A stretch of DNA of 62,839 nucleotides from Chloroflexota bacterium (GCA_010092845.1 JAADYW010000272.1:1-62839), one strand, 5' to 3'. Counted from the stretch's first letter, positions 14,889-42,080 are shown. Numbers and translations are program-made. The notes: generated by a model from the sequence alone, not told the origin.

Positions 14889-17453
14889 TTAGCTTTCCTT
14901 CTTCTTGCTGGATGACTTGCGCTTGGACGTTGATTTCTTAGAACTCCGCTTTTTGGCGAGCAACGTAACCGCCATCTCCAGCGTTACAGTGTCAGGTGGG
15001 GTATCCTTCGGGAGGCTGGCATTGGTGCGCTTGTGTTTGACATATGGACCGTAGCGGCCTGTATTGAGGGTGATCACGTCGCCGTCATCGGGGTGTGGGC
15101 CTAGCTCACGCAGGACACTCGAGGACGTACCTTTCTTCTGCCGGAGTAGCTCAACTGCCCGATCAAGCCCAATCGTCAAAATATCATCGTCTTTAGTCAG
15201 CGATTTATAGGTTTTGCCGCGCCGCACGTAGGGGCCATAGCGACCGATTCCGGCCTGGATTTCCTCACCGGTTTCAGGATCATCCCCCAACGTGCGAGGC
15301 AGCGCCAGCAGGCCCAGCGCCTGGTCAAGGCCAACAGAATCCGGAGGCATTGAGCGTGGCAGCGAAACGCGCTTTGGTTTCTCGCCATTTTCACCGGCTT
15401 CCCCCAGCTGGATGTAGTACCCGTAGGGGCCCTGCATCAAGAAGATGGACTGGCCGCTTTCGGGATCCTCACCCAGGACTGGTGGTCCTTCGTCTTTCTG
15501 GCGCAGCAGCTCCTCAATGACCTCGTGTTCTACGTCACCGGGGGCCATATCCGCCGGCAGCGAGGCCCGCAAGATATCATTGCCATTCTCTTTTTCGACA
15601 TAGGGACCGTAGCGACCAACACGTACCTTGGCCTCCAGTTCATCAAGATCCAGTGCGTAGATGTCGCGTGGATCGATATTCTCTTCTTTGCGCTGAACCT
15701 GCGCCTCGAGTCCGTCTTCTCCGCAATAGAAGTCGCGTAGATAGGGCAACCAGTCGGCGGCGCCGGTGGCAATCTCGTCGAGCGTCTGCTCCATGCGTGC
15801 AGTGAACTCGGCATTGACTAGATCAGGGAAATGCAGAGAGAGCAACCGCACCACTGCAAATGCCATGAAGGTGGGTATCAACTGGTTGCTGGATTTGACG
15901 ACATAGCCGCGGTCCTGAATTGTGCTGATAACAGTCGCGTAGGTACTGGGACGCCCCACGCCATCGCGTTCAAGGGCCTGGACAAGCGCCGCCTCAGTGA
16001 AGCGACTGGGTGGCTTGGTTTCATGACCAATGGCTTCTAGCTCCTGGCAGGCGACGCGCTCATCCACCTGCAGTGACGGCAAGATCACCTCCTGGTCATC
16101 GAGGGCCGCATCCGGATCATCCGAGCCTTCGACATAAGCTCGGAAGAAGCCCGGAAATTCGATACGCTTGCCAGATGCCTCAAATACCGCGTCTTCAACA
16201 CCGATCGAAACAGTCACAAAGCGTAAAATCGCTTCCGCCATTTGCGTTGCCATCGTCCGCTTCCAGATCATATCGTAAACGCGATATTCAACGCCTTTGA
16301 GACCCAGATCCTCAGCAGTTGGCATCTTATTGCCCGCAGGACGAATCGCCTCGTGTGCTTCCTGAGCACCCTTGGACTTCGTGGTGTACTGGCGGGGTTT
16401 ATCACTCAGGTACTCATCACCATAGCGTCGCGTAACGGCGGACCGCGCGGCCCCGATGGCCTCCTGTGACAGATGTACCGAGTCAGTACGCATGTACGTA
16501 ATATATCCCTGTTCGTAGAGGCGCTGTGCGACGCGCATGGTCTCGCGTGATGACAGACGGAGCTTGCGGTTGGCCTCTTGCTGGAGCGTACTGGTCACAA
16601 AAGGCGGCGGCGGACGGCGGCGCTGTACGCGTTCCTTGACATCAATTACTGTCCATTCACCATCAATCAGTCGCTCGCGCAATGCCAGTGCCTGGGCCTC
16701 GTCCAGAAGCAGGACCTTGGCCCGCTTCTTGAGCTTGCCCGTGTTATCATCAAAATCCTTGCCGGTGGCAACGCGCTGGCCACCCACCGACACCAACGTA
16801 GCTGGAAAAGTCTGCTTATGAGCCAGAATCGTGGCGCGCAAGTCCCAATAGCTGGCCGGTACAAAAGCCAGACGCTGGTTTTCTCGCTCCACCAAAATCT
16901 GTACAGCAACCGATTGAACCCGCCCGGCTGAGAGCCCCGGTGCAACCTTCTTCCACAGCAGCGGCGAGATGGTATAGCCAACCAGACGGTCCAGAATCCG
17001 CCGCGTTTCCTGGGCACGCACCAGTTTCTCATCGATCTGCCTTGTGGACTCCAGGGCAGCTTCAATCGCCTCGCGGGTGATCTCATGGAACACCATCCGC
17101 CGCACTGGGACTTTCGGCTTCAACACTTCTGTCAGGTGCCAGCCAATACTCTCGCCCTCACGGTCTTCGTCTGTCGCCAGAATCAGTTCGTCGGCTTCCT
17201 TAAGGCGTTGTTTCAGCTCTTTGATAACCTTCTTCTTGTCCGAAGGCACCACATATAACGGCGCGAAGTCGTTGTCGACATCAACACCGATACGTGACCA
17301 AGGTTTGTCCTTATAGGCTGCCGGGATCTCTTTAGCTGAAGGCGGCAGATCACGTACATGCCCCATCGAGGCCTCTACAACATAGTCCTCAGGCAGGTAA
17401 TTGCGTATTGTTCGCGCCTTCGTCGGGGACTCTACTATAACCAGTCGGCTCAT
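14889..17453 (-). CDS. topA: DNA topoisomerase I (type IA) with GRYGPYV C-terminal repeats and a lysine-rich tail
   Basis: Toprim start [13 protein letters not shown]. Active-site region [10 protein letters not shown]. Four (G)RYGPYV repeats. C-terminal [21 protein letters not shown]. Confidence 0.95.
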
Positions 17454-17575
17454 TCTATTGTTCCGTTAGATCACCCATGTCCACAATTTATCTTTGCCGC
17501 CAACAGGCTACACGACATACAATCATATTGTCAAGTAACCCATCGGCCAAATCTTGAACAGTCCGGAAGCAAACT

Positions 17576-18586
17576 ATGCTGCTACTCATCCGTATAATGC
17601 TTGCTGTATTCGGCGGGTTTTCAATCCTGCTGGCGGGTTTTCTGGAGAATCACAGCCCGGAAATCGCGCCGTCCTACCACCTGGCCTTTATCTCAACGCG
17701 CAGCGGTTATCTAGACTACCAGCTCTACCGAATGCGGGCAGACGGGCAGATCGTCCAACAACTCACCTATCGCGAGCCAGATAACCGGACCCAACGCTCA
17801 CCTGCCTGGTCGCCTGACGGTGAATGGATCACATTCACCTCCTATGGTACCCAAACCGAAATCTACCGAGTCCGGCCAGACGGCAGTGATCTGCAACCCT
17901 TCATCTCACCATTGCAGCAACGGTTCTTCGGCAGCGTCTCGCAACCCAACTGGTCACCAGACGGGCGTAAAGTCGCCTTCATTGCCAACGATGCCGGCAG
18001 CCCTGAGATCTTTGTGTTGGCAATCGACAGCAATAATATCCAGCAGGTCACTGAGTCAATTGGCACGATTCTGGAACCCAGGTGGTCGCCAGATAGCCAA
18101 TGGATTGCCTTTTCGTCGAACCGTACCGGCAAGACAGAGATCTACAAGATCCGGGCCGATGGCAGCGATGAAAAGCGGCTTACGGATAGCCCGGGCTGGA
18201 ATCGCTATCCGTCCTGGTCGCCGGATGGGCAATGGCTGACCTTCGCATCCGATCGTGATGGCGCCATGCAGATCTATCGTATGCGGGCCGACGGCAGCGG
18301 GGTACAGCAGTTAACGTCCGGTGCAGCCAGCACACTACCCGTCTGGTCTCCTGACGGGCACTTGATCGCTTATGTGAGCGAGGGCAGCGGCAAGCCTGAG
18401 ATCTATACGATGAAGCCGGACGGTAGCCAGCCACGCCAGATCACGCGGAGCACGGGTGACAACGTCTACCCCGTATGGGCCCCACCCCAGCGGGAGGAAC
18501 GGCCACCAATATGGGTACCAGCCCTGGTTGGCCTTCTGATCCTGCCCGCTAGCCTGAACTGGCGAGCCACGTTTTCGCGAAGCTAG
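17576..18586 (+). CDS. Membrane-anchored TolB-like PD40 beta-propeller repeat protein
   Basis: N-terminal TM, then five to six repeats of the WSPDG signature (AWSPDGEW, NWSPDGRK, RWSPDSQW, SWSPDGQW, VWSPDGHL). Hydrophobic C-terminal segment. Confidence 0.8.
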   Translation: MLLLIRIMLAVFGGFSILLAGFLENHSPEIAPSYHLAFISTRSGYLDYQLYRMRADGQIVQQLTYREPDNRTQRSPAWSPDGEWITFTSYGTQTEIYRVRPDGSDLQPFISPLQQRFFGSVSQPNWSPDGRKVAFIANDAGSPEIFVLAIDSNNIQQVTESIGTILEPRWSPDSQWIAFSSNRTGKTEIYKIRADGSDEKRLTDSPGWNRYPSWSPDGQWLTFASDRDGAMQIYRMRADGSGVQQLTSGAASTLPVWSPDGHLIAYVSEGSGKPEIYTMKPDGSQPRQITRSTGDNVYPVWAPPQREERPPIWVPALVGLLILPASLNWRATFSRS

Positions 18587-21255
18587 CGCGTGCCCTGCCA
18601 GCGCTGAACCGCGGCAAGCGCCTCAGGGGTACCGATACGCTGCAGCGACAACGCAGCGATCTCAGCGATAGTCTCGTCCTCGGTGGCATCGCCATCGGGC
18701 TCGATGAAGCGGTGGTCGCCAAGGCAATCTATCAATGGCTCGACCGCCAGCGGGCTGCCCGTCTCACCGAGTGTCTCTACCGCAATCGCCCGCCGGTAGA
18801 GATCAGCATCCTGGAGCTCGTGGATCAATGCCCGGATAGCGCGTTCATTGCCGGTCCAAGCAGCGGCAGAGGCCGCGGCGCGGTAGACATCGCCTTCAAA
18901 CTGTTTGATACTGACAGGATCCTCAAGGATCGCGACAAGCCCATCTACAGCAGGCTCACCATAGCTGGCGAGGGCATTGGCGACCGACCAGCGCACCTCA
19001 TATTCTGGGTCATAAATGCCGCCCAACAATGCCGGGAATGCGGCCACATCACCGATTTGCTGCAAGACCTGGGCAGCAGCGGCTCGGGTTTCCCAACGCT
19101 CGTGTTCTGCAGGATCAAGGCAATTACTGACCTCAGCGACAGCTGGTTTGCCGATACGTACCAGCGCCGGGATGACGAACTCACGCACATCATCATCGCC
19201 CAGCGCCTCTACCAGCACGGGAACTGCCGCCGGATGGGCGATTTCGCCCAGCGCCCAGGCCGCGATGCGCCGTTCATAGAGATCGCCATAAGCCATGTAC
19301 TCGATCATGATTTCGACGACGTGGGCCTCGCCCAGGCTGCGCAGCGCTTGAATCGCCGCCCGCGTCTGCCGCCAGTCGCCACGGTCGAATTCCTTTGTCA
19401 GGGCACTACGAATCTTGGCCAGGACGTCGTCAGAGATGCGTATGCCCGTTGTTACGGTTAGCCCCGCCAGATAGGGATCACGCCGCAGAACATCAACCAG
19501 GAGCGAGCCTGGCTGTTCTACCAAATGGCAGGCCATCTGGACAGCTTGATCCCAACGACCGGGTAGGCGCCGGTATTCCTTGGGGTCGAATACTGGCGGG
19601 TCAACTGTATCACCGATGCCTTGCCGCGTCAGCGCCTCACCGGCAAAGTAAGCCAGATACAAACGATGGCTGAAACGGACCGTATCCCGGTCTATGTCCA
19701 ACAAACCTAAGCGGTAGCCGACCTGGAGGAGTTGAAGCGCATCCTCGTCCGGCCCGCTTCGCAGCCAACGACGACGCCCGCCGATTTTAACCGCCGCCCA
19801 TGCCAGATCAGCGCCAACAGTTTCATCCTCGTCGATCATGCTGGCCGCTAATCCTGAGAAGCGTTCGATCATCTCATCATATGCAATCCACCCAGGCTGG
19901 CCCTGTGCTACTGACGACACCCAACGCGCCCGAACGGAAGCTCGCATCGCGGCCCCCAACTGCACCGGCAACGCCGCGTGGGGGTGTGCTTCGAAGATCT
20001 GCATAAGCCGCATCAACAAAAACGGCACACTCCCCAAAGGCAATTTTTCTCGCGGTGACCGTGATGGAAGCGATAACTGAGCCACAAAAGGCTCGCGAAG
20101 CTCGCTGGGGAGAAACTGCTGGGCAAACTGGCGGATATGGGCATGATCCAACGTATCAACGACCACCAATGGCAACCCTAGCTCACCGGTGTAACTGGCG
20201 GCGCGGCTAGCAATGACGACCGTTTCCGAGCATTCGTCACTGTCCAGCCACGCGGCCAGCACCTGGCGATTCCGCGGTCCGAGCTGATCAAAGCCGTCAA
20301 GGAATATGGTTACCGCTGACCAGTCAACTGCCAAAGAACCGGGCAGCATGCTAATTTCCTGCTCCAGATAGCGTCGCAGACGTGTGCCTTCGCGCCAACT
20401 ACTCAGGTCAGCGTAGACGGGTAGCCCATTCACTGTTGGATCGGAGCGGTAATCCCACACTGCGACCGCCACCAGGTGGTGGAGTGTCGTTGTCTTGCCT
20501 GTTCCGGCAGCGCCAAGGAGGGCAAATGAGGAATAGAGATCAGCAACGGCCAAAATACTTGGCAGCGGAATCAGTCCAGTTTCGTCAGCGGCAGGTGCTG
20601 GGTCGTCCTCATCCTCGTCTTCGTCGCTGGCATCCTCAGCGCCTGGTAGACGGGGTGGTTCCTTGACGACAGCGCCCAACTCCAGCGTCGGTTGGTCCGC
20701 GTCATCTTCATCAAGGGGCTCAGCATGAACACCCAATGGGATATACCCGACCAGACCACGATAGATCCGGGCCAGTAGCGCATTCAGATACTGATCAACA
20801 GACTCTGGGGGTTGGGTCAGCGCCGAACTTGCTCGTTGCCGGAGAGAATCGAGAATCGCCCCCAGCGCCGCCTGATACACCTCTTTGTCTTGCCAGGCTG
20901 ATGCCAAGATAGCACGATCACGCCTCAGACCGGAGGGCCAAGCGGCTACTGCCGCGCTCAACACCGGCAATATCGTGACGTTGCGTGCAGCCAGAAGTGC
21001 CAGCTCCTCCTGACGCTGCTCAACAAAGGCCGGGGACAGCACAATGATCCCTGCACAGCAGCGGGCAATGGCATCCTGCCGCACCGCCGGACCGTTCTCG
21101 TTTAACGTTCGCGGGTCTAGCTCAAAAGAATCGATCCACACGCGAACCCCGCGATTCTTGAGATCAGCGGCTAGTTGTGCAGCAAACCCACCGTCGGAGA
21201 CCACATATCCCAGATACACAAAGTCATCAGCCACGCGTGTTACTCTCCTGGTCAC
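18583..21255 (-). CDS. NLR-like protein: N-terminal TIR domain, P-loop STAND/NACHT-type NTPase, C-terminal HEAT (PBS-lyase type) repeats
   Basis: TIR: DFVYLGYVVSDGGFAAQLAADLKNRGVRVWIDS...IIVLSPAFVEQRQEEL. Walker A: LLGAAGTGKTT. Walker B-like: VTIFLDGFDQL. HEAT repeats: RRIAAWALGEIAHPAAVPVLVEALGD, RAAAAQVLQQIGDVAAFPALLGGIYD, RWSVANALASYGEPAVDGLVAIL, RRAIAVETLGETGSPLAVEPLIDCLGD. GTG start at 21255, or GTG at 21234. Confidence 0.8.
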   Translation of the reverse strand: MTRRVTRVADDFVYLGYVVSDGGFAAQLAADLKNRGVRVWIDSFELDPRTLNENGPAVRQDAIARCCAGIIVLSPAFVEQRQEELALLAARNVTILPVLSAAVAAWPSGLRRDRAILASAWQDKEVYQAALGAILDSLRQRASSALTQPPESVDQYLNALLARIYRGLVGYIPLGVHAEPLDEDDADQPTLELGAVVKEPPRLPGAEDASDEDEDEDDPAPAADETGLIPLPSILAVADLYSSFALLGAAGTGKTTTLHHLVAVAVWDYRSDPTVNGLPVYADLSSWREGTRLRRYLEQEISMLPGSLAVDWSAVTIFLDGFDQLGPRNRQVLAAWLDSDECSETVVIASRAASYTGELGLPLVVVDTLDHAHIRQFAQQFLPSELREPFVAQLSLPSRSPREKLPLGSVPFLLMRLMQIFEAHPHAALPVQLGAAMRASVRARWVSSVAQGQPGWIAYDEMIERFSGLAASMIDEDETVGADLAWAAVKIGGRRRWLRSGPDEDALQLLQVGYRLGLLDIDRDTVRFSHRLYLAYFAGEALTRQGIGDTVDPPVFDPKEYRRLPGRWDQAVQMACHLVEQPGSLLVDVLRRDPYLAGLTVTTGIRISDDVLAKIRSALTKEFDRGDWRQTRAAIQALRSLGEAHVVEIMIEYMAYGDLYERRIAAWALGEIAHPAAVPVLVEALGDDDVREFVIPALVRIGKPAVAEVSNCLDPAEHERWETRAAAAQVLQQIGDVAAFPALLGGIYDPEYEVRWSVANALASYGEPAVDGLVAILEDPVSIKQFEGDVYRAAASAAAWTGNERAIRALIHELQDADLYRRAIAVETLGETGSPLAVEPLIDCLGDHRFIEPDGDATEDETIAEIAALSLQRIGTPEALAAVQRWQGTR

Positions 21256-21296
21256 CCAGCACCACCGGCGTCGACAAACGATGCGCTGGGTAGATT

Positions 21297-22028
21297 CTAA
21301 TCCGTTTCACTATAGAACTCGTAGAAATCCCCCCGCAGATATGCGTACTCATATTTGCGTGACCGGCGCCCCTGGTCAGCCGGCTCGCCACCATCAATAA
21401 CACAGGCCAGGCCATAGGCGTAATCCTCATCCCCGAAATTGAAGAAAACCGTACTCTGTTCTCGAAAGACATCAACAGTGTCGGCATCAAAGATCCCGAT
21501 GTCGGCATCGTTGGGATCGAAGATGTGCGGGGATTGGTCGGCGTGTTCCTGCTTCCAGAATTGGCAAAGCGACTCCGCCGTGTCGAAAACCTGGCCATAA
21601 GAGTGGTTCATCTCCTGGCTAACTGCCACCTCAAAGAAACTCGGCATTATAAAGGGCGGAAAGCCCACCATCACCACCGCGGCCACCGCCAACAGCACGC
21701 TTAGATAGGAAGCGCGTTTCTGCAAGGCCAGGCGGCCGATCCGCAAGGCGCCGTAGGCGAGGATCGCCGCCAGGGCAAAACTCCCTAGGTGCCAGACCTG
21801 CTTGATAAAACTCAGCGCAAAATAATCTGGCGGACTAAGCTCGGCAAATAGAACGCGCAAGCCAAACCAGATCAAGGCCGCCACGAGAAGGGACACTAAT
21901 GACAATAGAAAGTTGCCGCGGGCTAGCGGGTGGAGATCTTCCCAGAGTAATAGCAAATTGCGGAGGCGCGAGGGCCTAGCCAAAGATTCGTTGTCGTGGT
22001 GGTTCACTGTAGTCATCGTCTTCTTCAT
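21297..22028 (-). CDS. Polytopic membrane protein of unknown function, paralog A (3 predicted TM + ~100 aa C-terminal domain)
   Basis: TM segments (FLLSLVSLLVAALIWFGL, LGSFALAAILAYGAL, LSVLLAVAAVVMVGFPPFIM). The C-terminal domain ...IGIFDADTVDVFREQSTVFFNFG...GLACVIDGGEPAD...YAYLRGDFYEFYSE is alignable to the upstream gene. Start uncertain (22028, 22016 or later) and overlaps the upstream gene end. Confidence 0.6.
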   Translation of the reverse strand: MKKTMTTVNHHDNESLARPSRLRNLLLLWEDLHPLARGNFLLSLVSLLVAALIWFGLRVLFAELSPPDYFALSFIKQVWHLGSFALAAILAYGALRIGRLALQKRASYLSVLLAVAAVVMVGFPPFIMPSFFEVAVSQEMNHSYGQVFDTAESLCQFWKQEHADQSPHIFDPNDADIGIFDADTVDVFREQSTVFFNFGDEDYAYGLACVIDGGEPADQGRRSRKYEYAYLRGDFYEFYSETD

Positions 22029-22661
22029 AGAAATAGAAACGGTCATCTTTTCGTTCGAAAGTATAGCGCTCAGTATCTTCGGGCGGTGCACCATCGGCAG
22101 GAATGCACACGTAGCCGATCTCACCCCGGGCCTCGCCTATCTCGATCCAGACGCGACCATCACGCCGCAGCCTGACTTCGGCATGGTTGAAGACACCAAT
22201 CTCCTGCTCATCACCGATTGCAGCCGCCCCATAGCCTTCCGCCAGCACCTGGTCGCAGACAGCTAACATCTCATCGCGCGAGCGCTGAAAGTCCCAATCG
22301 GTTCGAGCATCCAACACGACTTCTAGCAGCGGCAACCATACGGCCATGAGGATCATTACGATAATGGGCGCGGCCCAGACGGCAACAAGATTGCGCGTAT
22401 CAGTATAGTCCACCAGCTGGTGATAGCGAATATTGACGCGCAGCGCGTTCCAGAAGAGTAGCAGCAGGGAGAACATCGCCGCCAGAAGCCACACCCAGGG
22501 ATATACATCAACACAATGCCGACGACAGGGGCAACTGAGCTTGGAATAAGCATCAGGGTAATAATCAAGCCCAGTTGTGCCAAGATCAAAAAGAACAGAA
22601 ATGCCAGGTTGACCAGGGTAAGCGGGTGCCAGGCTTTCAAGAGTCGAGAAATCAGCATCAC
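21976..22661 (-). pseudogene. Membrane protein paralog B, apparently split by a frameshift near 22494-22500
   Basis: ORF 21976-22494 has only a GTG start and aligns to the C-terminal two thirds of paralog A. ORF 22356-22661 is in another frame. Its first ~56 aa (LLKAWHPLTLVNLAFLFFLILAQLG...) align to the paralog A N-terminus (LLLWEDLHPLARGNFLLSLVSLL) and end exactly where the other ORF begins. Confidence 0.5.
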
Positions 22662-22844
22662 TATCTCCTTGGCCCCAAGTTTAGCAACTCATTGCCGCTT
22701 CGGCGATTGACAACGCATACGGGCCTGCGGATTGGTTTTGAACATGGAGCGTTTCAGCCTTGTAATTTACATACAGGCACGGCATACTGCAACGGCATTA
22801 GACGATTTATGCAGAAACTGAAGAGTGTATAGGGTCGGTTTAGA

Positions 22845-23501
22845 ATGTCGGCAAAATCCAAAAAGCAAGCTCCCTTCTGGGAACAAAAATGGTTTCGCAA
22901 CGTCGCCTTGTTCACAATCGCGGTCCTGGCAACGGGCGGCCTGGCGCTGGCCTTTATCGAACTCAGCGACAACAGCGCCGTCATCGAATTTGTCAATGAA
23001 AGCAATTGTCCCCAGGTGGTCTGGACGTTACAGGGGGCTGATGGCACGAATTATACGGTTAGCCTCCGACCGGGCGAAACGGAAGAGATCGAGGTCAGCC
23101 CGGATGTCGAATACGACTACCTCATGGACACCAACTCTGATCCGGACATCAACAACATGGCCTGTTTCGATCGCGATGAGGGCACCGTCAATGTGCCGGC
23201 GGGTGGCAAGCAGACGTTCCGCTTGAAGTCGCAGACCCGGCCGACTATCGCCTTCATCAATGATACGGACTGCGAAGAGGCCTATCTCGAACTCACGTCA
23301 CTCCGCGCCGAGGACCAAAACGCCAGCGCAGCGCCCAACGAAACGTCTAACGTGGAAATCGCCCCTGACATCGAATATACCTACGAGATCGACGCGTGCG
23401 GCGTAACTAAAGAAGGCAAAATCACTCTCTCGCTGGATCGCTCCCAGACGTTCCGCGTCTCGGAAGTAGTAGCAGAGAGCGAAGACTCGGCGGAGTCTTA
23501 G
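22845..23501 (+). CDS. Single-pass membrane-anchored protein with two internal ~80 aa repeats, unknown function
   Basis: TM FRNVALFTIAVLATGGLALAFI. Repeat 1 VIEFVNESNCPQVV...EIEVSPDVEYDYLMD...QTFRLKS. Repeat 2 TIAFINDTDCEEAY...NVEIAPDIEYTYEID...QTFRVSE. Confidence 0.6.
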   Translation: MSAKSKKQAPFWEQKWFRNVALFTIAVLATGGLALAFIELSDNSAVIEFVNESNCPQVVWTLQGADGTNYTVSLRPGETEEIEVSPDVEYDYLMDTNSDPDINNMACFDRDEGTVNVPAGGKQTFRLKSQTRPTIAFINDTDCEEAYLELTSLRAEDQNASAAPNETSNVEIAPDIEYTYEIDACGVTKEGKITLSLDRSQTFRVSEVVAESEDSAES

Positions 23502-24622
23502 CTCTGCCAGACGAAGCGGCCACCCACTGAACGCCCGCTGACCGGTTTGTAGAGACCATCGTTCTGAAGCACCACCACCTCAACCGACCAGAGCAACTGG
23601 CGACTCTCGCCGGCAGCGGGCCGCAATTCCTGGGGCAGGATCAAGCTCGATGACTTCGTCTCACGTAATAAGATGACTTCCCCACTACCCTCGTCCGTAA
23701 TGGTCACCAAATAGCGTTCGTCAGCCTCCAGGGTGCGGCCAGGTAGGACCCAGCTTAACATCACAGGGTCTTCGACAGTCGCCCCATTAGGTGGCGAGAG
23801 CACCTCTGGCGGCAGAAAGGTTGGGGTTGGCGTAGCGGTCTCATCACCGGTGAAGGTTGGTGTCGAGGTTACGGTATGCGTCGGGCCGGGGACATTGAGG
23901 CACGTCTGATCACTGATCAATGGCGGATTCGGGCAATAGCCGACAGCGGATTCAGAGAAGTCGCACCCACGGCAATCTAAGCCATCCGGGCCGCTGTTGA
24001 GTTCACAGATCCGCTGATTCGAGGTGCCATGCTGGATGGCAATACTGGTCAGCGTATCCCCCTCACCCGGACAATAGGTGTAGATCGCATATTGGGTCGC
24101 ATTGCGCAGACGTGTCGGCAATGCCTGAAAGACCGCGGTAGCTGTCTGATCCAGCCCAAAGGGCGTCGGCGTCGATGTTGGATACGGTACCAGAACCTCC
24201 TGCCCCTCGCTCAAGGTGCACGATTCGTTCAACCCGTTCAACTCACGGATCGCCGCCACCCCACCGGGGAGTGACAGTCGATAGAACACTGCGAGTTCGC
24301 TGCATGTCTGGCCAGCACGCACCACATGGACGTAGGGCCCAGGCGTTGCCGTAGGAGGCGCAGGCGTAGCCGGTTGCTGCGTAGGTGAGGGCGGCGCCGG
24401 GGTCAACGTTGGAGGAAACGTCGGCGACGGGGTCCGCGTTGGACCACCCGGCGTCACAGTTGCGGTCGCGGTTGCTTCTTCGGCAACTTCAGTTGCGCGC
24501 AGTGTCGGTGCCCCCGTCGGCGATTCGGGCTCTTCCTCGTCACCACAAGCTACAATAAGGCCCAGGGCCAGTATCACCACAAGCAGCATTACGCCTGTAC
24601 GGCGATTGATCAATCGTTGCAT
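23498..24622 (-). CDS. Exported LysM-like / Pro-Thr-linker protein with conserved C-terminal ~95 aa domain (paralog of the next gene)
   Basis: Signal/lipoprotein-like MLLVVILALGLIVACG. PT-rich linker. LysM-like VHVVRAGQTCSELAVFYRL...GQEVLVP. C-terminal domain ...LSWVLPGRTLEADERYLVTITDEG...LLWSVEVVV...RFVWQS. Confidence 0.65.
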   Translation of the reverse strand: MQRLINRRTGVMLLVVILALGLIVACGDEEEPESPTGAPTLRATEVAEEATATATVTPGGPTRTPSPTFPPTLTPAPPSPTQQPATPAPPTATPGPYVHVVRAGQTCSELAVFYRLSLPGGVAAIRELNGLNESCTLSEGQEVLVPYPTSTPTPFGLDQTATAVFQALPTRLRNATQYAIYTYCPGEGDTLTSIAIQHGTSNQRICELNSGPDGLDCRGCDFSESAVGYCPNPPLISDQTCLNVPGPTHTVTSTPTFTGDETATPTPTFLPPEVLSPPNGATVEDPVMLSWVLPGRTLEADERYLVTITDEGSGEVILLRETKSSSLILPQELRPAAGESRQLLWSVEVVVLQNDGLYKPVSGRSVGGRFVWQS

Positions 24623-24645
24623 AAGCGCGTCCCTATTTCTTCTAA

Positions 24646-26073
24646 CTATCTCGAACGCCCTTGCCAGAAGAACTGGCGGGGAACCGTTGCCTCGCGCATG
24701 GACTGCACCTGGCCATCCTGAATGACCACGATACTCACCGACCACTCAAATCCCTGACTGCCACCATCGGTAGGCTGCCAGTCTGCCGGCACAACGAAAA
24801 ACAGATCTGTTGTGCGACCCTGGTAAGCTTCCCCGGTATCCAAGTTGCGCACACTGACCTGGTAGAATTCATTCGGCGCCAGTGAGCCGGTGGCGGTCCA
24901 ACGTAACGTAATGAGGCTATTAGCGTCGAAGCGAGTATCATCCGGTGGCTGGTTGGCCGAAGGCACGTTAAAGGTCGGCGAAGGGCTCGGTGTCGGCGTC
25001 TCACTACCGGACGGTGACGGCAAACTTGTCGGAGTCGATGTCGGCGCTGGCACCCGGATGCGCTGGCCTTCATAGATCATCACTGTACACGCCTCGCCCC
25101 CAAAGCGTTCGCTGAAATCACACTGGCCGAACTCGATCTCTGGGTTAACATCAGAAATGATCTTGGCATCTATTCCGTACTGGACTGCAATAGAGATCAT
25201 CGTCTCGTCCTGCTCGACGGTGTGCCACATCAAACCGGGACGGAGCGTTGGCTCCTGGCGCAATGTAGCCACGAGATCAGGTGTACCGAACTCGTTCACC
25301 GGGACTGTTGCCGCTGCGGCCACATCACTTTCCCCAGCAGCAAGCGCTGCGTCACTCTGGCCCTGGCCTGTCGACCCGCTCTCGACATCATCATCTTGTG
25401 TGTCTTCAGCCGTGGCTGTCTCGCCGCCTGGTGTCGCCGTTGGCAACGGGATTTCGATCGTCTGGCCTTCACGCAAGCAGGTTTCGCAATCGAGTCCGTC
25501 ATTCATCTCGATGATCACATTGACGATTGAGAAATCGCGGTGGCCGCACTCAAGGGCAAGCCCATAGATGGTGTCTTCAGCACCCGCCGTCTTGATGCAT
25601 GGCCCCGGGGTCTCAGTCGCCGTCGCGGTTGCTGGCATCGGTGTTACCGACGGGAAATTGACCGGCGCCGCGCGCGTATTGGTCGGCTGAGGCGTTATCG
25701 ATGCCGTGCGGGATGGCGCCGGAGACTCCGATCCCAGTGGTGCGCTGCCGGACGACACATCATCGCTAGAGTCATCACCATCCAGCGCTAGAAATGCGCC
25801 TGCGCCAGCAGCGAAAAGGACCATGACCAGCAAGACAAATCCGAAAGCGGCACCCAGCGGGGTGCTGCTTATTCCTTGTGCCAGGAGATCATCTTCCCCT
25901 TCATGCGAATCATAGACCCGCTCGTCCTGGGGTGTGGGTGTCTGTGCACGTTGTGATATGCGGCGTGGCGACTCAGCGAGGGCAGCACCACAGATCAGAC
26001 ATTGGCGTGCCTCAGGGTCATTCGCAGCACCACAGGTTGGACATCTTGGTTGAGATACACGGCCCATAATCAA
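24646..26073 (-). CDS. Zinc-ribbon / TM / LysM-like protein with the same C-terminal domain as 23498-24622
   Basis: N-terminal CPTCGAANDPEARQCLICGAAL. TM FGFVLLVMVLFAAGAGAFLAL. LysM-like segments. C-terminal ...LRWTATGSLAPNEFYQVSVRNLDTG...FEWSVSIVV...QFFWQG. Confidence 0.65.
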   Translation of the reverse strand: MIMGRVSQPRCPTCGAANDPEARQCLICGAALAESPRRISQRAQTPTPQDERVYDSHEGEDDLLAQGISSTPLGAAFGFVLLVMVLFAAGAGAFLALDGDDSSDDVSSGSAPLGSESPAPSRTASITPQPTNTRAAPVNFPSVTPMPATATATETPGPCIKTAGAEDTIYGLALECGHRDFSIVNVIIEMNDGLDCETCLREGQTIEIPLPTATPGGETATAEDTQDDDVESGSTGQGQSDAALAAGESDVAAAATVPVNEFGTPDLVATLRQEPTLRPGLMWHTVEQDETMISIAVQYGIDAKIISDVNPEIEFGQCDFSERFGGEACTVMIYEGQRIRVPAPTSTPTSLPSPSGSETPTPSPSPTFNVPSANQPPDDTRFDANSLITLRWTATGSLAPNEFYQVSVRNLDTGEAYQGRTTDLFFVVPADWQPTDGGSQGFEWSVSIVVIQDGQVQSMREATVPRQFFWQGRSR

Positions 26074-39729: not shown

Positions 39730-40182
39730 ATGCAGACGATATCATGCAGCCGCTGGATTGGCCGCTCCCCCTCAGATGTCTATGAGGTTCTGACCGACCC
39801 CGCAAAGCTTGTCACTATTGTCAAGCGCCTTGCCGGGATCGAGGTCTTGCATCGCGACGGAGATGTCGGGCGCGTCAAGGCCATTCTCGACCTCCCTGGT
39901 GGCAAGCATGTCGCTACTGAGGGTAAGGTCACCGGTCGTTCAGACAGCTTTCTAAGCTTCACGACTTCCACACCTTTCGAGCTTGAGATCACCTGGGAAT
40001 TGACCGCAGATCTCCGAGACGGCATAGCCGGGACTGACGTCGTCTATCGAGCGGGCGTGGATTTCGGCCCCATGATCGAATTCCTGTCAAAACTGGTCCT
40101 CAGCGGCTACCTTACAACTGAGATGGAACGCGATCTGGACAAGTTGGAGGGGTTTCTGGCCAACGAAGTTTCCCCAGCCTAA
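39730..40182 (+). CDS. SRPBCC (polyketide cyclase/START-like) family protein
   Basis: 150 aa. MQTISCSRWIGRSPSDVYEVLTDPAKL... shows the typical SRPBCC N-terminus and length. Confidence 0.6.
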   Translation: MQTISCSRWIGRSPSDVYEVLTDPAKLVTIVKRLAGIEVLHRDGDVGRVKAILDLPGGKHVATEGKVTGRSDSFLSFTTSTPFELEITWELTADLRDGIAGTDVVYRAGVDFGPMIEFLSKLVLSGYLTTEMERDLDKLEGFLANEVSPA

Positions 40183-42080
40183 TGCGCGGGTAGGGTAATC
40201 TCTCCCAGATAATAGCGCCCCTGATAACGCTCCTGGAGGGTAGGATCCGCGAGGGGCACGAGGTTCGCGGCATCGTAGGTTTCATACCACCCCACACGCA
40301 CGCCATACGTAGCCGGCGGCAATTCAACCGGCACTGGGACAGGGTCGCGAATCAGGACTCCGACCGGCCAGTGCTGGGTTGAGATCACGCCACCCTGGAC
40401 CCCGTGATCCAACACAGCAACTGCTGGCGCCATTGGTTGGCTAGGTTCTACGTGGCCAGGCGTCAGGTGCAGCAGGACACTGTAGTCGACGGCTGTCTGG
40501 CGCAGGGGTTCCCAGTAGAGCTGGAGTATAGTGCCGCCCTCGCCTCCTTGTAAGAGCGTGTAGCCCCGCAACAATGCTACATCGCCGAATTGCACCGTCA
40601 ACGGATAGTCGATTTCTCGGGATCGCACCTCACGGGCCCGGTACTGGATCACCCCTGCCCACGTATCCCCTGGAATATGCTGGGCATGGTCCTGGAAGTA
40701 GCGCAGTGCGTATGAGGTATTGGCATCAGCCAGGACATAAATGGCATCATGCTCTTCGAGTAAGGATGCAAAGAAGGCCTCGTCACCTTCGCTGCCGATC
40801 GACAGAAAGCGGACCTTACCCGGCCCTCGATAATAGTACTCCAGCGCGGGATCAGCAGAGCCGGATAATACGGCATCATATTGGGTGGTGCGCGCCTGAA
40901 GATAGGACGTCAGCCCTTCCCAATCCGGTGACTTGGGCGGATCGCTGTGAAAATAGTCATAGACCTCGCCTCCGGCCAGAATCAGATAGACCGCCACTCC
41001 GCCTGAAGCGGCATAGCGCCCTACCCGGGGGCCCCAGCGGCTCTTGGCAAGCGCGTACAAAATCGCAACGGTGCCGATTATCAACGCAGGAACACTGTGA
41101 ATGACATATCGAGGACGGAAGACTGTCATCCAGTTCCCCACAAGCAACAAGGTGGCGGGGGGCACAATCCCCCACAGGAGCAGCAGCGCTGCCCAGTCCT
41201 TACCGCGGTGCACAATCCAGGCCAGGCCACCTGCAAAAAGGATCACAAAAAGCATACCCCAATGCCAGGGTACGGTGTTAGCGCCCACCAGCAACGTCGG
41301 CACGAAATACTCAAACAGATCACCGAAGTCTGCGCCTGCGGCGGTGCCCTCGTAGTCAGTCACAAATCCCAGCCAGTATAGCTGCACCAGGTTTGGCAAA
41401 CATAACAAGCCAACCGTTACCCAGGCGCGAAATGCATGGCGCAGAGCGGCGCGTCGCCAGACAAACACGTAGATCATCTGCGCTAGTAGTGGAAACACCT
41501 CGAAGTAGTAGATGTAGAGACTGGCTGCCTGAACAATGATATAGGGCCACCAAACGCCGAAGTGCCGTCTCGGCTGCCGATGTTCCACGGCACGCCAGAG
41601 CAGATAGAAACTAAGAGGTGTGAAGAACCCGATAATTCCATAGTTGCGTGCGTCCTGAGCGTGCCAGATCAAGAAGGGATGGAACGCCCAGACGAGGCCA
41701 ACCATGAACGCCAACCACCAGTTCCGGAAAAGCCGACGACTGAACGCGATGACCACCGCGCTGCCAAGCACGTTAAACAACAGCGGCAGGACCCGGAGGG
41801 CGAACTCGCTGGTTCCCGCAAGCTCGGCCCAGAACCAGTAAACGATAAATATCCCGCCGGGATGAGGCTCGTAGCCAACCATATCGAACCACGCGCCCGT
41901 TAGGGGACGCTGGATCCAGTGAACGGCTGTATATGCCTCATCGCCACGAAGGTCAACGGCATCAAGCTGGTAGATACGAAGAGCAGCAGCCACGAGAAGC
42001 AAGGCCGCCAGTCCTAGCCAGAGCAACATGCCAGATTTTGCGCGAGGTGGGGAAGCTCCCGGATGCAGCGGCGATCCCAT
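40179..42080 (-). CDS. GT-C fold glycosyltransferase (family 39 / ArnT-PMT-like), polytopic membrane protein
   Basis: More than ten hydrophobic helices. First-loop motif LRGDEAYTAVHW. Large C-terminal soluble domain. Confidence 0.75.
   Translation of the reverse strand: MGSPLHPGASPPRAKSGMLLWLGLAALLLVAAALRIYQLDAVDLRGDEAYTAVHWIQRPLTGAWFDMVGYEPHPGGIFIVYWFWAELAGTSEFALRVLPLLFNVLGSAVVIAFSRRLFRNWWLAFMVGLVWAFHPFLIWHAQDARNYGIIGFFTPLSFYLLWRAVEHRQPRRHFGVWWPYIIVQAASLYIYYFEVFPLLAQMIYVFVWRRAALRHAFRAWVTVGLLCLPNLVQLYWLGFVTDYEGTAAGADFGDLFEYFVPTLLVGANTVPWHWGMLFVILFAGGLAWIVHRGKDWAALLLLWGIVPPATLLLVGNWMTVFRPRYVIHSVPALIIGTVAILYALAKSRWGPRVGRYAASGGVAVYLILAGGEVYDYFHSDPPKSPDWEGLTSYLQARTTQYDAVLSGSADPALEYYYRGPGKVRFLSIGSEGDEAFFASLLEEHDAIYVLADANTSYALRYFQDHAQHIPGDTWAGVIQYRAREVRSREIDYPLTVQFGDVALLRGYTLLQGGEGGTILQLYWEPLRQTAVDYSVLLHLTPGHVEPSQPMAPAVAVLDHGVQGGVISTQHWPVGVLIRDPVPVPVELPPATYGVRVGWYETYDAANLVPLADPTLQERYQGRYYLGEITLPAH

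Follow-up and report, generated by a model that had tools for sequence, protein, structure and literature searches.

The window analysed here is a contig of 62,839 nucleotides from a Chloroflexota bacterium (GCA_010092845.1, JAADYW010000272.1:1-62839; positions are counted from its first letter), and the subject is a group of three co-directional genes on its minus strand. The first two, called A and B, overlap each other and encode membrane proteins; the third encodes a large protein, called the receptor, in which a TIR domain, a STAND NTPase of NACHT type and an array of PBS-lyase-type HEAT repeats follow each other from the N- to the C-terminus. A first-pass annotation, made from the sequence of the window, had described the large protein as NLR-like and had proposed that the three genes form an operon that encodes a defence system. 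Its description of the individual genes and domains is for the most part borne out in the following, and its NLR-like reading of the large protein is fully supported; the defence system made up of all three genes is not established.

Domains and motifs of the receptor

The positions of the receptor gene, its domains and its motifs are given in Table 1, which takes the longest open reading frame as the gene. In the NCBI annotation the protein starts instead at a GTG codon at 21234, which is preceded by AGGAG 10 nt upstream and leads to a protein of 883 residues; the matching record (P0001) is named 'TIR domain-containing protein' and comes from a metagenome-assembled genome (MAG) of a Chloroflexi bacterium.

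The N-terminal domain matches Pfam TIR_2 with 38.8 bits, when the curated cutoff is 28, and thus belongs to the TIR superfamily. A profile of the TIR domains in the clade of the receptor matches AbTIR and other solved TIR domains with E-values down to 3e-13. The conserved Glu of the (W)xxEL motif is catalytic in AbTIR, SARM1 and plant TIRs. In the receptor, E84 is aligned to the Glu in the ..YEL motif of AbTIR, and the column to which it belongs is Glu in at least 90% of the wider family, so that the Glu which had been noticed at the expected catalytic position is indeed found there.

The acidic linker, the Walker A motif and the Walker B motif are also present as first described, and the alignment of motifs places the sensor Arg of the NTPase in IASRAASY. 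The window protein therefore retains K254 of Walker A, D320 of Walker B, the sensor Arg and E84 of the TIR domain. When the window protein is taken alone, Pfam NACHT (PF05729) scores 17.4 bits, which is under the curated cutoff of 26.7, and the NACHT assignment rests on family-level and structural evidence: the Walker A motif has the form GxxGxGK[ST] and the Walker B motif the form hhhhD, the sensor Arg is present, the closest relatives are NACHT proteins, and the best Pfam NACHT E-value among 48 family members is 1.5e-15. When a profile of the NTPase region is compared with the PDB, the best matches are NLRP14, NLRP9 and NLRP5, with NLRC4 weaker. In the C-terminal part, HEAT_2 (101.9 bits in 3 stretches) and HEAT_PBS (59.5 bits) match over residues ~615-885, which identifies the repeats; this array is presumably the part of the receptor that binds a ligand.

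An AlphaFold2 model of the receptor, built from a 48-sequence alignment, has a predicted local distance difference test score (pLDDT) of 88.6 and a predicted template modelling score of 0.83, and the pLDDT falls below 50 only at residues 1-7, 183-223 and 398-404. The top Foldseek matches of this model are NLRC4, NLRP3, NLRP9 and NAIP5, while its HEAT part matches alphaRep and CpcE.

A large family of mostly single genes

An exhaustive HMMER search, in which residues 8-640 of the receptor were compared with 1.84 billion cluster representatives (50% clustering), finds 714 relatives at E<=1e-3 and 142 at E<=1e-30, most of which align from the TIR domain through the NTPase. Among the best 48 of them TIR_2 is found in 46, NACHT in 44 and HEAT_2 in 42, and from this follows that TIR-NACHT-HEAT is a large and recurrent architecture. 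When the whole receptor was the query of a word-index homolog search, the only matches were the receptor itself and one HEAT protein, and no contig on record has the exact sequence of either the 890-aa or the 883-aa protein. The architecture has already been described for bacterial NACHT proteins, whose N-terminal effectors include TIR domains and whose C-terminal repeats include HEAT repeats (bioRxiv 10.1101/2022.07.19.500537).

The genomic contexts of distant family members were compared at 28 loci, 27 of which were examined independently (24 metagenomic loci, L010, L035 with its duplicates L036 and L037, and L038). At these loci the receptor homologs stand alone in varied contexts. None has a homolog of A or B, and no consistent membrane neighbour is found, the genes upstream being heterogeneous. 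The receptor belongs, as one ortholog, to a large family whose members are mostly single genes.

The membrane paralogs A and B

Gene B is separated from the receptor by 41 nt when the start of the longest open reading frame is used, as originally reported, and by 62 nt when the annotated start is used. BLASTP aligns A and B over 173 residues with an E-value of 8e-5, and in an alignment of ten members of the A/B family the residues W75, R92, C151, G174, G195, G202, C205 and Y232 (B numbering) are invariant, while both paralogs carry an HPL(A/T)R motif ahead of the first transmembrane helix. By these shared residues, two Cys among them, A and B are true paralogs, as had been proposed. B has three transmembrane helices followed by an acidic alpha+beta domain at the C-terminus, which contains the invariant C151 and C205. 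Its AlphaFold2 model (pLDDT 75.5) has helices at residues 30-56, 69-98 and 104-123, two more helices and a five-stranded sheet. That the C-terminal domain could not be assigned to a family was also correct: nothing significant is found in Pfam, NCBIfam or PADLOC for any of the 10 members, and the best Foldseek E-values of the B model, 0.43 in the PDB and 0.21 in BFVD, give no fold match.

The orientation of the two proteins in the membrane can be predicted from their charges. When Lys and Arg are counted against Asp and Glu in the ten members, the N-terminus has a net charge of +2 to +6, the loop between the second and third transmembrane helices +2 to +4, and the C-terminal domain -10 to -23. 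With the positive-inside rule this distribution predicts that the N-terminus is inside and the C-terminus outside, and from this follows further that the domain of ~110 residues with the two Cys would be extracytoplasmic, where it is probably disulfide-bonded. The parts of A and B that are predicted to be cytoplasmic are then only the ~14-39 N-terminal residues and a loop of 12-14 residues. A model akin to Thoeris or Pycsar, in which A and B are transmembrane effectors fired by a nucleotide that the TIR domain makes, was rejected, since these cytoplasmic parts are too small for it and no effector model matches.

Homologs of A and B occur on a handful of contigs, and every one of these with visible context has them next to an orthologous receptor gene; the two paralogs thus do co-occur with a TIR-STAND gene. 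The order A, B, receptor is found in the Logan assembly DRR538840 (L003) and in L005 and L006 (ENA ERZ25074849 and Logan SRR18550247, respectively). In an Aggregatilineales MAG (L001, the same as L002) and in GCA_054920675.1 (L008), a Zn-ADH gene (Pfam ADH_N / ADH_zinc_N) is inserted between B and the receptor. The Logan assembly SRR12681864 (L007) has B and the receptor, with an AT-rich spacer of 470 nt in place of A, and the contig L009 (ENA ERZ25074611) starts inside the ADH gene and continues with the receptor and topA. No homologs of A or B were found in JGI metagenome contigs, IMG/VR viral contigs or PLSDB plasmids, and a scan of genome contigs, limited by its search pattern, brought up just the one contig that was known before. 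The A/B family is uncharacterised, phylogenetically tiny and restricted to one lineage.

In the window, gene A is interrupted. Its first transmembrane helix is encoded from the ATG at 22658 (22658..~22508) and the remaining 172 residues are encoded in another frame, at 22494..21976. The intact A homolog of L001 aligns to the window (tblastn) only from its residue 53, and the hidden Markov model of the A/B family matches two different frames at A. The contig L004 (SRR10018917), which is 98-99% identical, has an intact A of 227 aa (P0005), and its alignment with the DNA of the window shows that the window has one T fewer at ~22507. Because the first helix and the rest of the protein lie in different frames, the three transmembrane helices that had been ascribed to each paralog are there in B, but in A they exist only after correction of the frameshift. 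A programmed frameshift was considered and rejected, as A is a single intact open reading frame in L004, L001, L003 and L008.

The window is a MAG contig and the missing base lies in a run of two T, and the frameshift could equally be a true mutation or an error of consensus or assembly. If it is real, the module may be decaying, so that the locus is on its way to being lost and the trio should be given no function in this genome. Such decay would account for a 1-nt deletion relative to so close a strain and for the TIR and NTPase motifs that have eroded in some orthologs. It is nevertheless very improbable, as B and the 890-aa reading frame are intact with all motifs present, the indel has the artefactual explanation just given, and L007 retains B and the receptor without A, which is dispensable there.

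Conservation of the locus and the case for a three-gene system

The adjacency of the A/B genes to the receptor is kept in six orthologous lineages, all of them Aggregatilineales-like Chloroflexota. The genes around them keep their places too: a block of ~17 kb, with the order valS, a small HEAT_2 gene, NTP_transferase, HD, DLH, two LysM genes, a gene of unknown family, A, B, receptor, PD40 and topA, is common to the window, L001, L003 and L008, and is collinear with the window from 32064 to 14955. The amino acid identities between the window and the related loci differ greatly within this block. They are 75-78% for topA and 69-74% for DLH, 51-56% for the LysM proteins and 47-52% for PD40, 40-49% for A, 36-40% for B, 36-40% for the receptor and 33-41% for the product of a 218-codon gene upstream of A. 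The trio of A, B and receptor is accordingly fast-evolving yet vertically inherited at a fixed place. Since the whole block from valS to topA is collinear, the adjacency of A and B to the receptor is inseparable from general synteny and may simply be inherited.

The Zn-ADH genes are located at L001:10609-11556, L008:5038-5997 and L009:2-463. In L001 the gene overlaps the stop of B by 4 nt, and the ADH genes end 3-17 nt ahead of the receptor start. The enzyme was rejected as a part of any system, because its gene is absent from the window, L003, L005 and L007. That the gene of an NAD(P)-dependent enzyme adjoins a TIR gene is curious, and may be a coincidence.

Consider now the proposal that A, B and the receptor make up one system. 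The membrane proteins, probably as a heterodimer of A and B or a homodimer of B, would sense with their outside domain an event at the envelope, such as phage adsorption or cell-wall damage, or would anchor the receptor. Their short conserved cytoplasmic N-terminus (W-x-D-x-HPLAR-x-N) would relay the signal to the HEAT array, and TIR activity would be triggered. The layout of the genes lends this some weight, as they are co-directional and tightly spaced. The spacer between B and the receptor has no significant fold (z = 0.16) and no terminator-like structure, and a scan from 17400 to 23600 for promoter-like and terminator-like signals found no more of them than expected by chance, with no promoter-like match in the divergent intergenic region ahead of A. 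The part of the first-pass claim that concerns an operon is hence compatible with tight spacing and no detectable terminator, and A and B are probably co-transcribed with the receptor. The same proposal is favoured by an adjacency kept in six lineages at identities of 36-49% within the trio, by the membership of A, B, the receptor and the 218-codon gene in the fast-evolving part of the block, and by the HPL(A/T)R motif in the cytoplasmic N-termini of both paralogs.

The weight on the other side is greater. A and B accompany the receptor in one lineage only, and there the whole stretch between valS and topA is collinear. Three loci have a Zn-ADH gene between B and the receptor, L007 has no A, the A of the window carries a frameshift, and the distant receptor loci, the JGI contigs, IMG/VR and the plasmids have no A or B. 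In addition, very little of A and B is predicted to be cytoplasmic, three orthologs have lost the catalytic Glu and yet retain the neighbourhood, and the locus is in no defence island. A single system of three genes is therefore an unlikely reading of the locus.

A related proposal is a split receptor, in which B, alone or together with A, would serve the TIR-NACHT-HEAT protein as its dedicated partner in the membrane and a disulfide-bonded sensor on the outside would report envelope events to a cytoplasmic NLR-like NADase. If true, the arrangement would recall a transmembrane receptor that is coupled to a protein of TIR signalling, a design of which no example has been described for bacterial NACHT proteins, and it would offer a tractable case of a cytoplasmic NLR wired to an extracytoplasmic sensor. 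Such a split receptor is improbable. That the receptor should require B as a partner is likewise unlikely, owing to the ADH insertion, the dispensability of A, the absence of A and B from other family members and the location of the sizeable A/B domain outside the cell.

Interpretation of the receptor gene

The reading that is preferred here, with moderate confidence, is that the product of the large gene is a bacterial NLR-like receptor which belongs to the NACHT clade and is cytoplasmic, and that A and B are an envelope pair restricted to the lineage. By analogy with characterised NACHT and TIR proteins, from which both the activation mechanism and the NADase activity are carried over, the HEAT array would bind a ligand, and binding would lift autoinhibition and allow nucleotide-dependent oligomerisation of the NACHT module. 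The TIR domains, when brought together in this way, would form composite active sites around E84, and these sites would cleave NAD+, either so that it is depleted or so that a signal is made, with growth arrest or cell death as the outcome. In terms of classification, the known family of bacterial TIR-NACHT-HEAT proteins would then gain a further ortholog group from Chloroflexota, a group that is vertically inherited at a fixed position of the core genome, in which the catalytic TIR residue is being lost in some lineages and the HEAT array is best conserved.

Several observations weigh against this reading. To begin with, B is kept beside the receptor wherever the upstream side is visible, either with gaps of 27-62 nt or tightly packed around the ADH gene, which argues for some coupling of the two. 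Furthermore, the catalytic column of the TIR domain varies among the seven orthologs: it is Glu in four (window, L003, L005 and L008), Asp in L001, Gln in L007 and deleted in L009. Part of the TIR domain (the betaB/W-x-D segment) is missing in L008, and the sensor Arg of the NTPase is missing in L009. When the orthologs are compared with the window protein domain by domain, the identity is lowest in the TIR domain (27-32%) and highest in the HEAT array (47-51%), where it is inflated by the repeat consensus. That the HEAT array is the most and the TIR domain the least conserved is the reverse of what is expected for a receptor in an arms race. Finally, PADLOC-DB v2 gives no system-level match (Avs, Thoeris, CBASS, Pycsar and PDC candidates), and the receptor gene is at a fixed spot in a collinear block of housekeeping and envelope genes and in no variable defence island.

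The fixed position, the loss of the TIR residue and the conservation of the HEAT array are together a hint of domestication, in which some NLR-like proteins of bacteria may have taken on a role outside the arms race. According to this alternative, the receptor has no antiphage or cell-death role in the lineage and is a vertically inherited STAND-type protein for signalling or scaffolding, connected with the biology of the envelope or of filaments. The HEAT array would bind a conserved self ligand, the TIR domain would be mainly an oligomerisation module with a dispensable NADase activity, and the receptor would serve an envelope context made up of A, B, the 218-aa protein, both LysM proteins and the PD40 protein. 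It accommodates a single-copy ortholog at a fixed locus between envelope genes and a topA gene that is itself only 75-78% identical, a catalytic Glu that is replaced or deleted in three of seven orthologs, the partial deletion in L008, and a HEAT array that is the best conserved domain. Membrane and wall proteins are, moreover, abundant nearby (two LysM proteins, PD40 and membrane-anchored proteins without a family), and the nine flanking window proteins tested against PADLOC at 1e-5 gave no matches, nor did the ADH of L001.

Domestication is still unlikely. The window protein retains every catalytic motif, and the wider family, with its Glu kept at the frequency given above, has the patchy and varied contexts that are typical of conflict genes. 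The low identity of NTPase and TIR domain among the orthologs also fits immune genes that evolve fast, and positive evidence for any specific non-immune role is absent. The receptor gene is found neither among defence genes nor at a place of variable presence. In PADLOC it has partial, domain-level matches only (HEAT-ARM_XIII at 2e-10 and TIR pieces at ~4e-4), A and B have none, and its only TIR neighbour is a gene for a double-TIR protein beyond topA.

Comparison with known systems

Among the closest known systems are the bNACHT antiphage proteins (Kibby et al., bioRxiv 10.1101/2022.07.19.500537). Like the receptor, they have an N-terminal effector, a central NACHT module and C-terminal repeats, and in both cases the proteins are usually encoded by single genes and are over-represented in bacteria that are multicellular or filamentous. 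In contrast to these, the receptor is located in a collinear core-genome block with lineage-specific membrane genes upstream, and its TIR Glu is not conserved among orthologs; a phage-defence phenotype is known for none of its clade. The Avs or AVAST proteins (Gao et al.; Nature 2026, PMC13581612) share with the receptor a STAND NTPase, an N-terminal effector, a C-terminal sensor of helical repeats and an oligomerisation that is thought to be triggered by ligand. They differ in that the receptor has no PADLOC Avs match, an NTPase of the NACHT type and no defence-island context.

The same logic of TIR domain, STAND NTPase and repeat sensor is found in the plant TIR-NLRs Roq1 and RPP1 and, in part, in animal NLRC4 and NLRP3. 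The TIR profile of the receptor matches the TIR domains of Roq1, RPP1 and RUN1, and its NTPase model superposes best on NLRC4, NLRP3 and NLRP9. Plant TIR-NLRs, however, use NB-ARC and leucine-rich repeats, and animal NLRs have leucine-rich repeats and no TIR domain, whereas the receptor combines NACHT with a PBS-type HEAT array. The likeness is thus a resemblance in design and not membership.

Also in systems with transmembrane effectors of the Thoeris, Pycsar and CBASS types, the gene of a TIR protein adjoins genes of small proteins with several transmembrane helices. The membrane proteins of those systems carry a cytoplasmic domain that binds a nucleotide signal, whereas the sizeable domain of A and B is predicted to be outside, and apart from generic TIR pieces, neither A nor B nor the receptor is matched by a model of ThsA, ThsB or an effector. 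The NTP-dependent conflict systems (Kaur, Burroughs, Iyer and Aravind; eLife 2020 PMC7159879, 2021 PMC8195603) have in common with the present locus filamentous Chloroflexota hosts, STAND NTPases, TIR effectors and HEAT or TPR modules. Their defining partners are vWA-MoxR, iSTAND or EAD/Death-like adaptors; the receptor locus contains none of these, and no library model matches the A/B family.

Neighbouring genes

Table 1. Positions in the window of the receptor gene with its domains and motifs, of the membrane paralogs and of the neighbouring features
Feature	Position	Strand	Remarks
TIR-NACHT-HEAT receptor gene	18583..21255	minus	longest open reading frame 890 aa
TIR domain, residues 13-114	20914..21219	minus	Pfam TIR_2 (PF13676)
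Codon of E84, putative catalytic Glu	21004..21006	minus	
Acidic linker, residues 183-223	20587..20709	minus	sequence EDASDEDEDEDDPAPAADE; predicted disordered, pLDDT <50
NACHT-type STAND NTPase module, residues ~229-615	19411..20571	minus	
Codon of K254	20494..20496	minus	Walker A GAAGTGKTT, residues 248-256
Codon of D320	20296..20298	minus	Walker B IFLDGFDQL
PBS-lyase-type HEAT repeat array, residues ~616-889	18589..19410	minus	C-terminal
Paralog B, 239 aa	21297..22016	minus	GYB66_15210; identical to annotated protein (P0003)
Paralog A, interrupted	21976..22658	minus	stop at 21976 overlaps B start
Divergent intergenic region	22659..22844		186 nt, between A and 218-aa gene
Gene of 218-aa membrane-anchored protein	22845..23501	plus	divergent from A; one N-terminal transmembrane helix, no family match
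Two paralogous LysM-type proteins	23498..24745 and 24646..26073	minus	30-35% identical
PD40 beta-propeller gene	17576..18586	plus	convergent on receptor, overlaps its stop by 4 nt
topA	14889..17453		beyond PD40 gene, downstream of receptor
Double-TIR protein, 271 aa	13956..14771	minus	two tandem TIR_2, Pfam 131 bits; directly beyond topA

From the layout of the genes, the divergent intergenic region is presumed to contain the promoter of the unit formed by A, B and the receptor. The 218-aa gene on its other side is syntenic in all related loci and, as judged by its identity, evolves as fast as A, B and the receptor; its product could belong to the same functional neighbourhood. The PD40 protein has hydrophobic segments at both ends, and L003 has two PD40-like paralogs (L003:14073-16143) where the window has one.

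The assignment of the two LysM-type proteins comes from weak Pfam LysM matches in their orthologs. Both have Pro/Thr-rich linkers, and the longer one starts with a zinc-ribbon-like CPTCG...CLICG motif, which is followed by a transmembrane segment. The longest open reading frames of the pair overlap by ~100 nt, and the downstream gene therefore probably starts later than listed.

The double-TIR gene has partial PADLOC matches only (SAVED_TIR, Aga TIR and ThsB pieces). In the column of the catalytic Glu, its first TIR domain has Asp (..LSDLE) and its second Glu (..PKELI). It is absent from all syntenic loci and is placed exactly where the collinearity with L001 and L003 stops, and for both reasons it looks like a lineage-specific insertion. 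As a partner of the receptor it was rejected, being absent in every syntenic locus. Elsewhere in the window, an unusually high AT skew of 0.33 at 41-42 kb coincides with the open reading frame of a polytopic membrane protein of 633 aa (40179..42080, minus strand), and looks like an effect of coding composition with no separate feature behind it.

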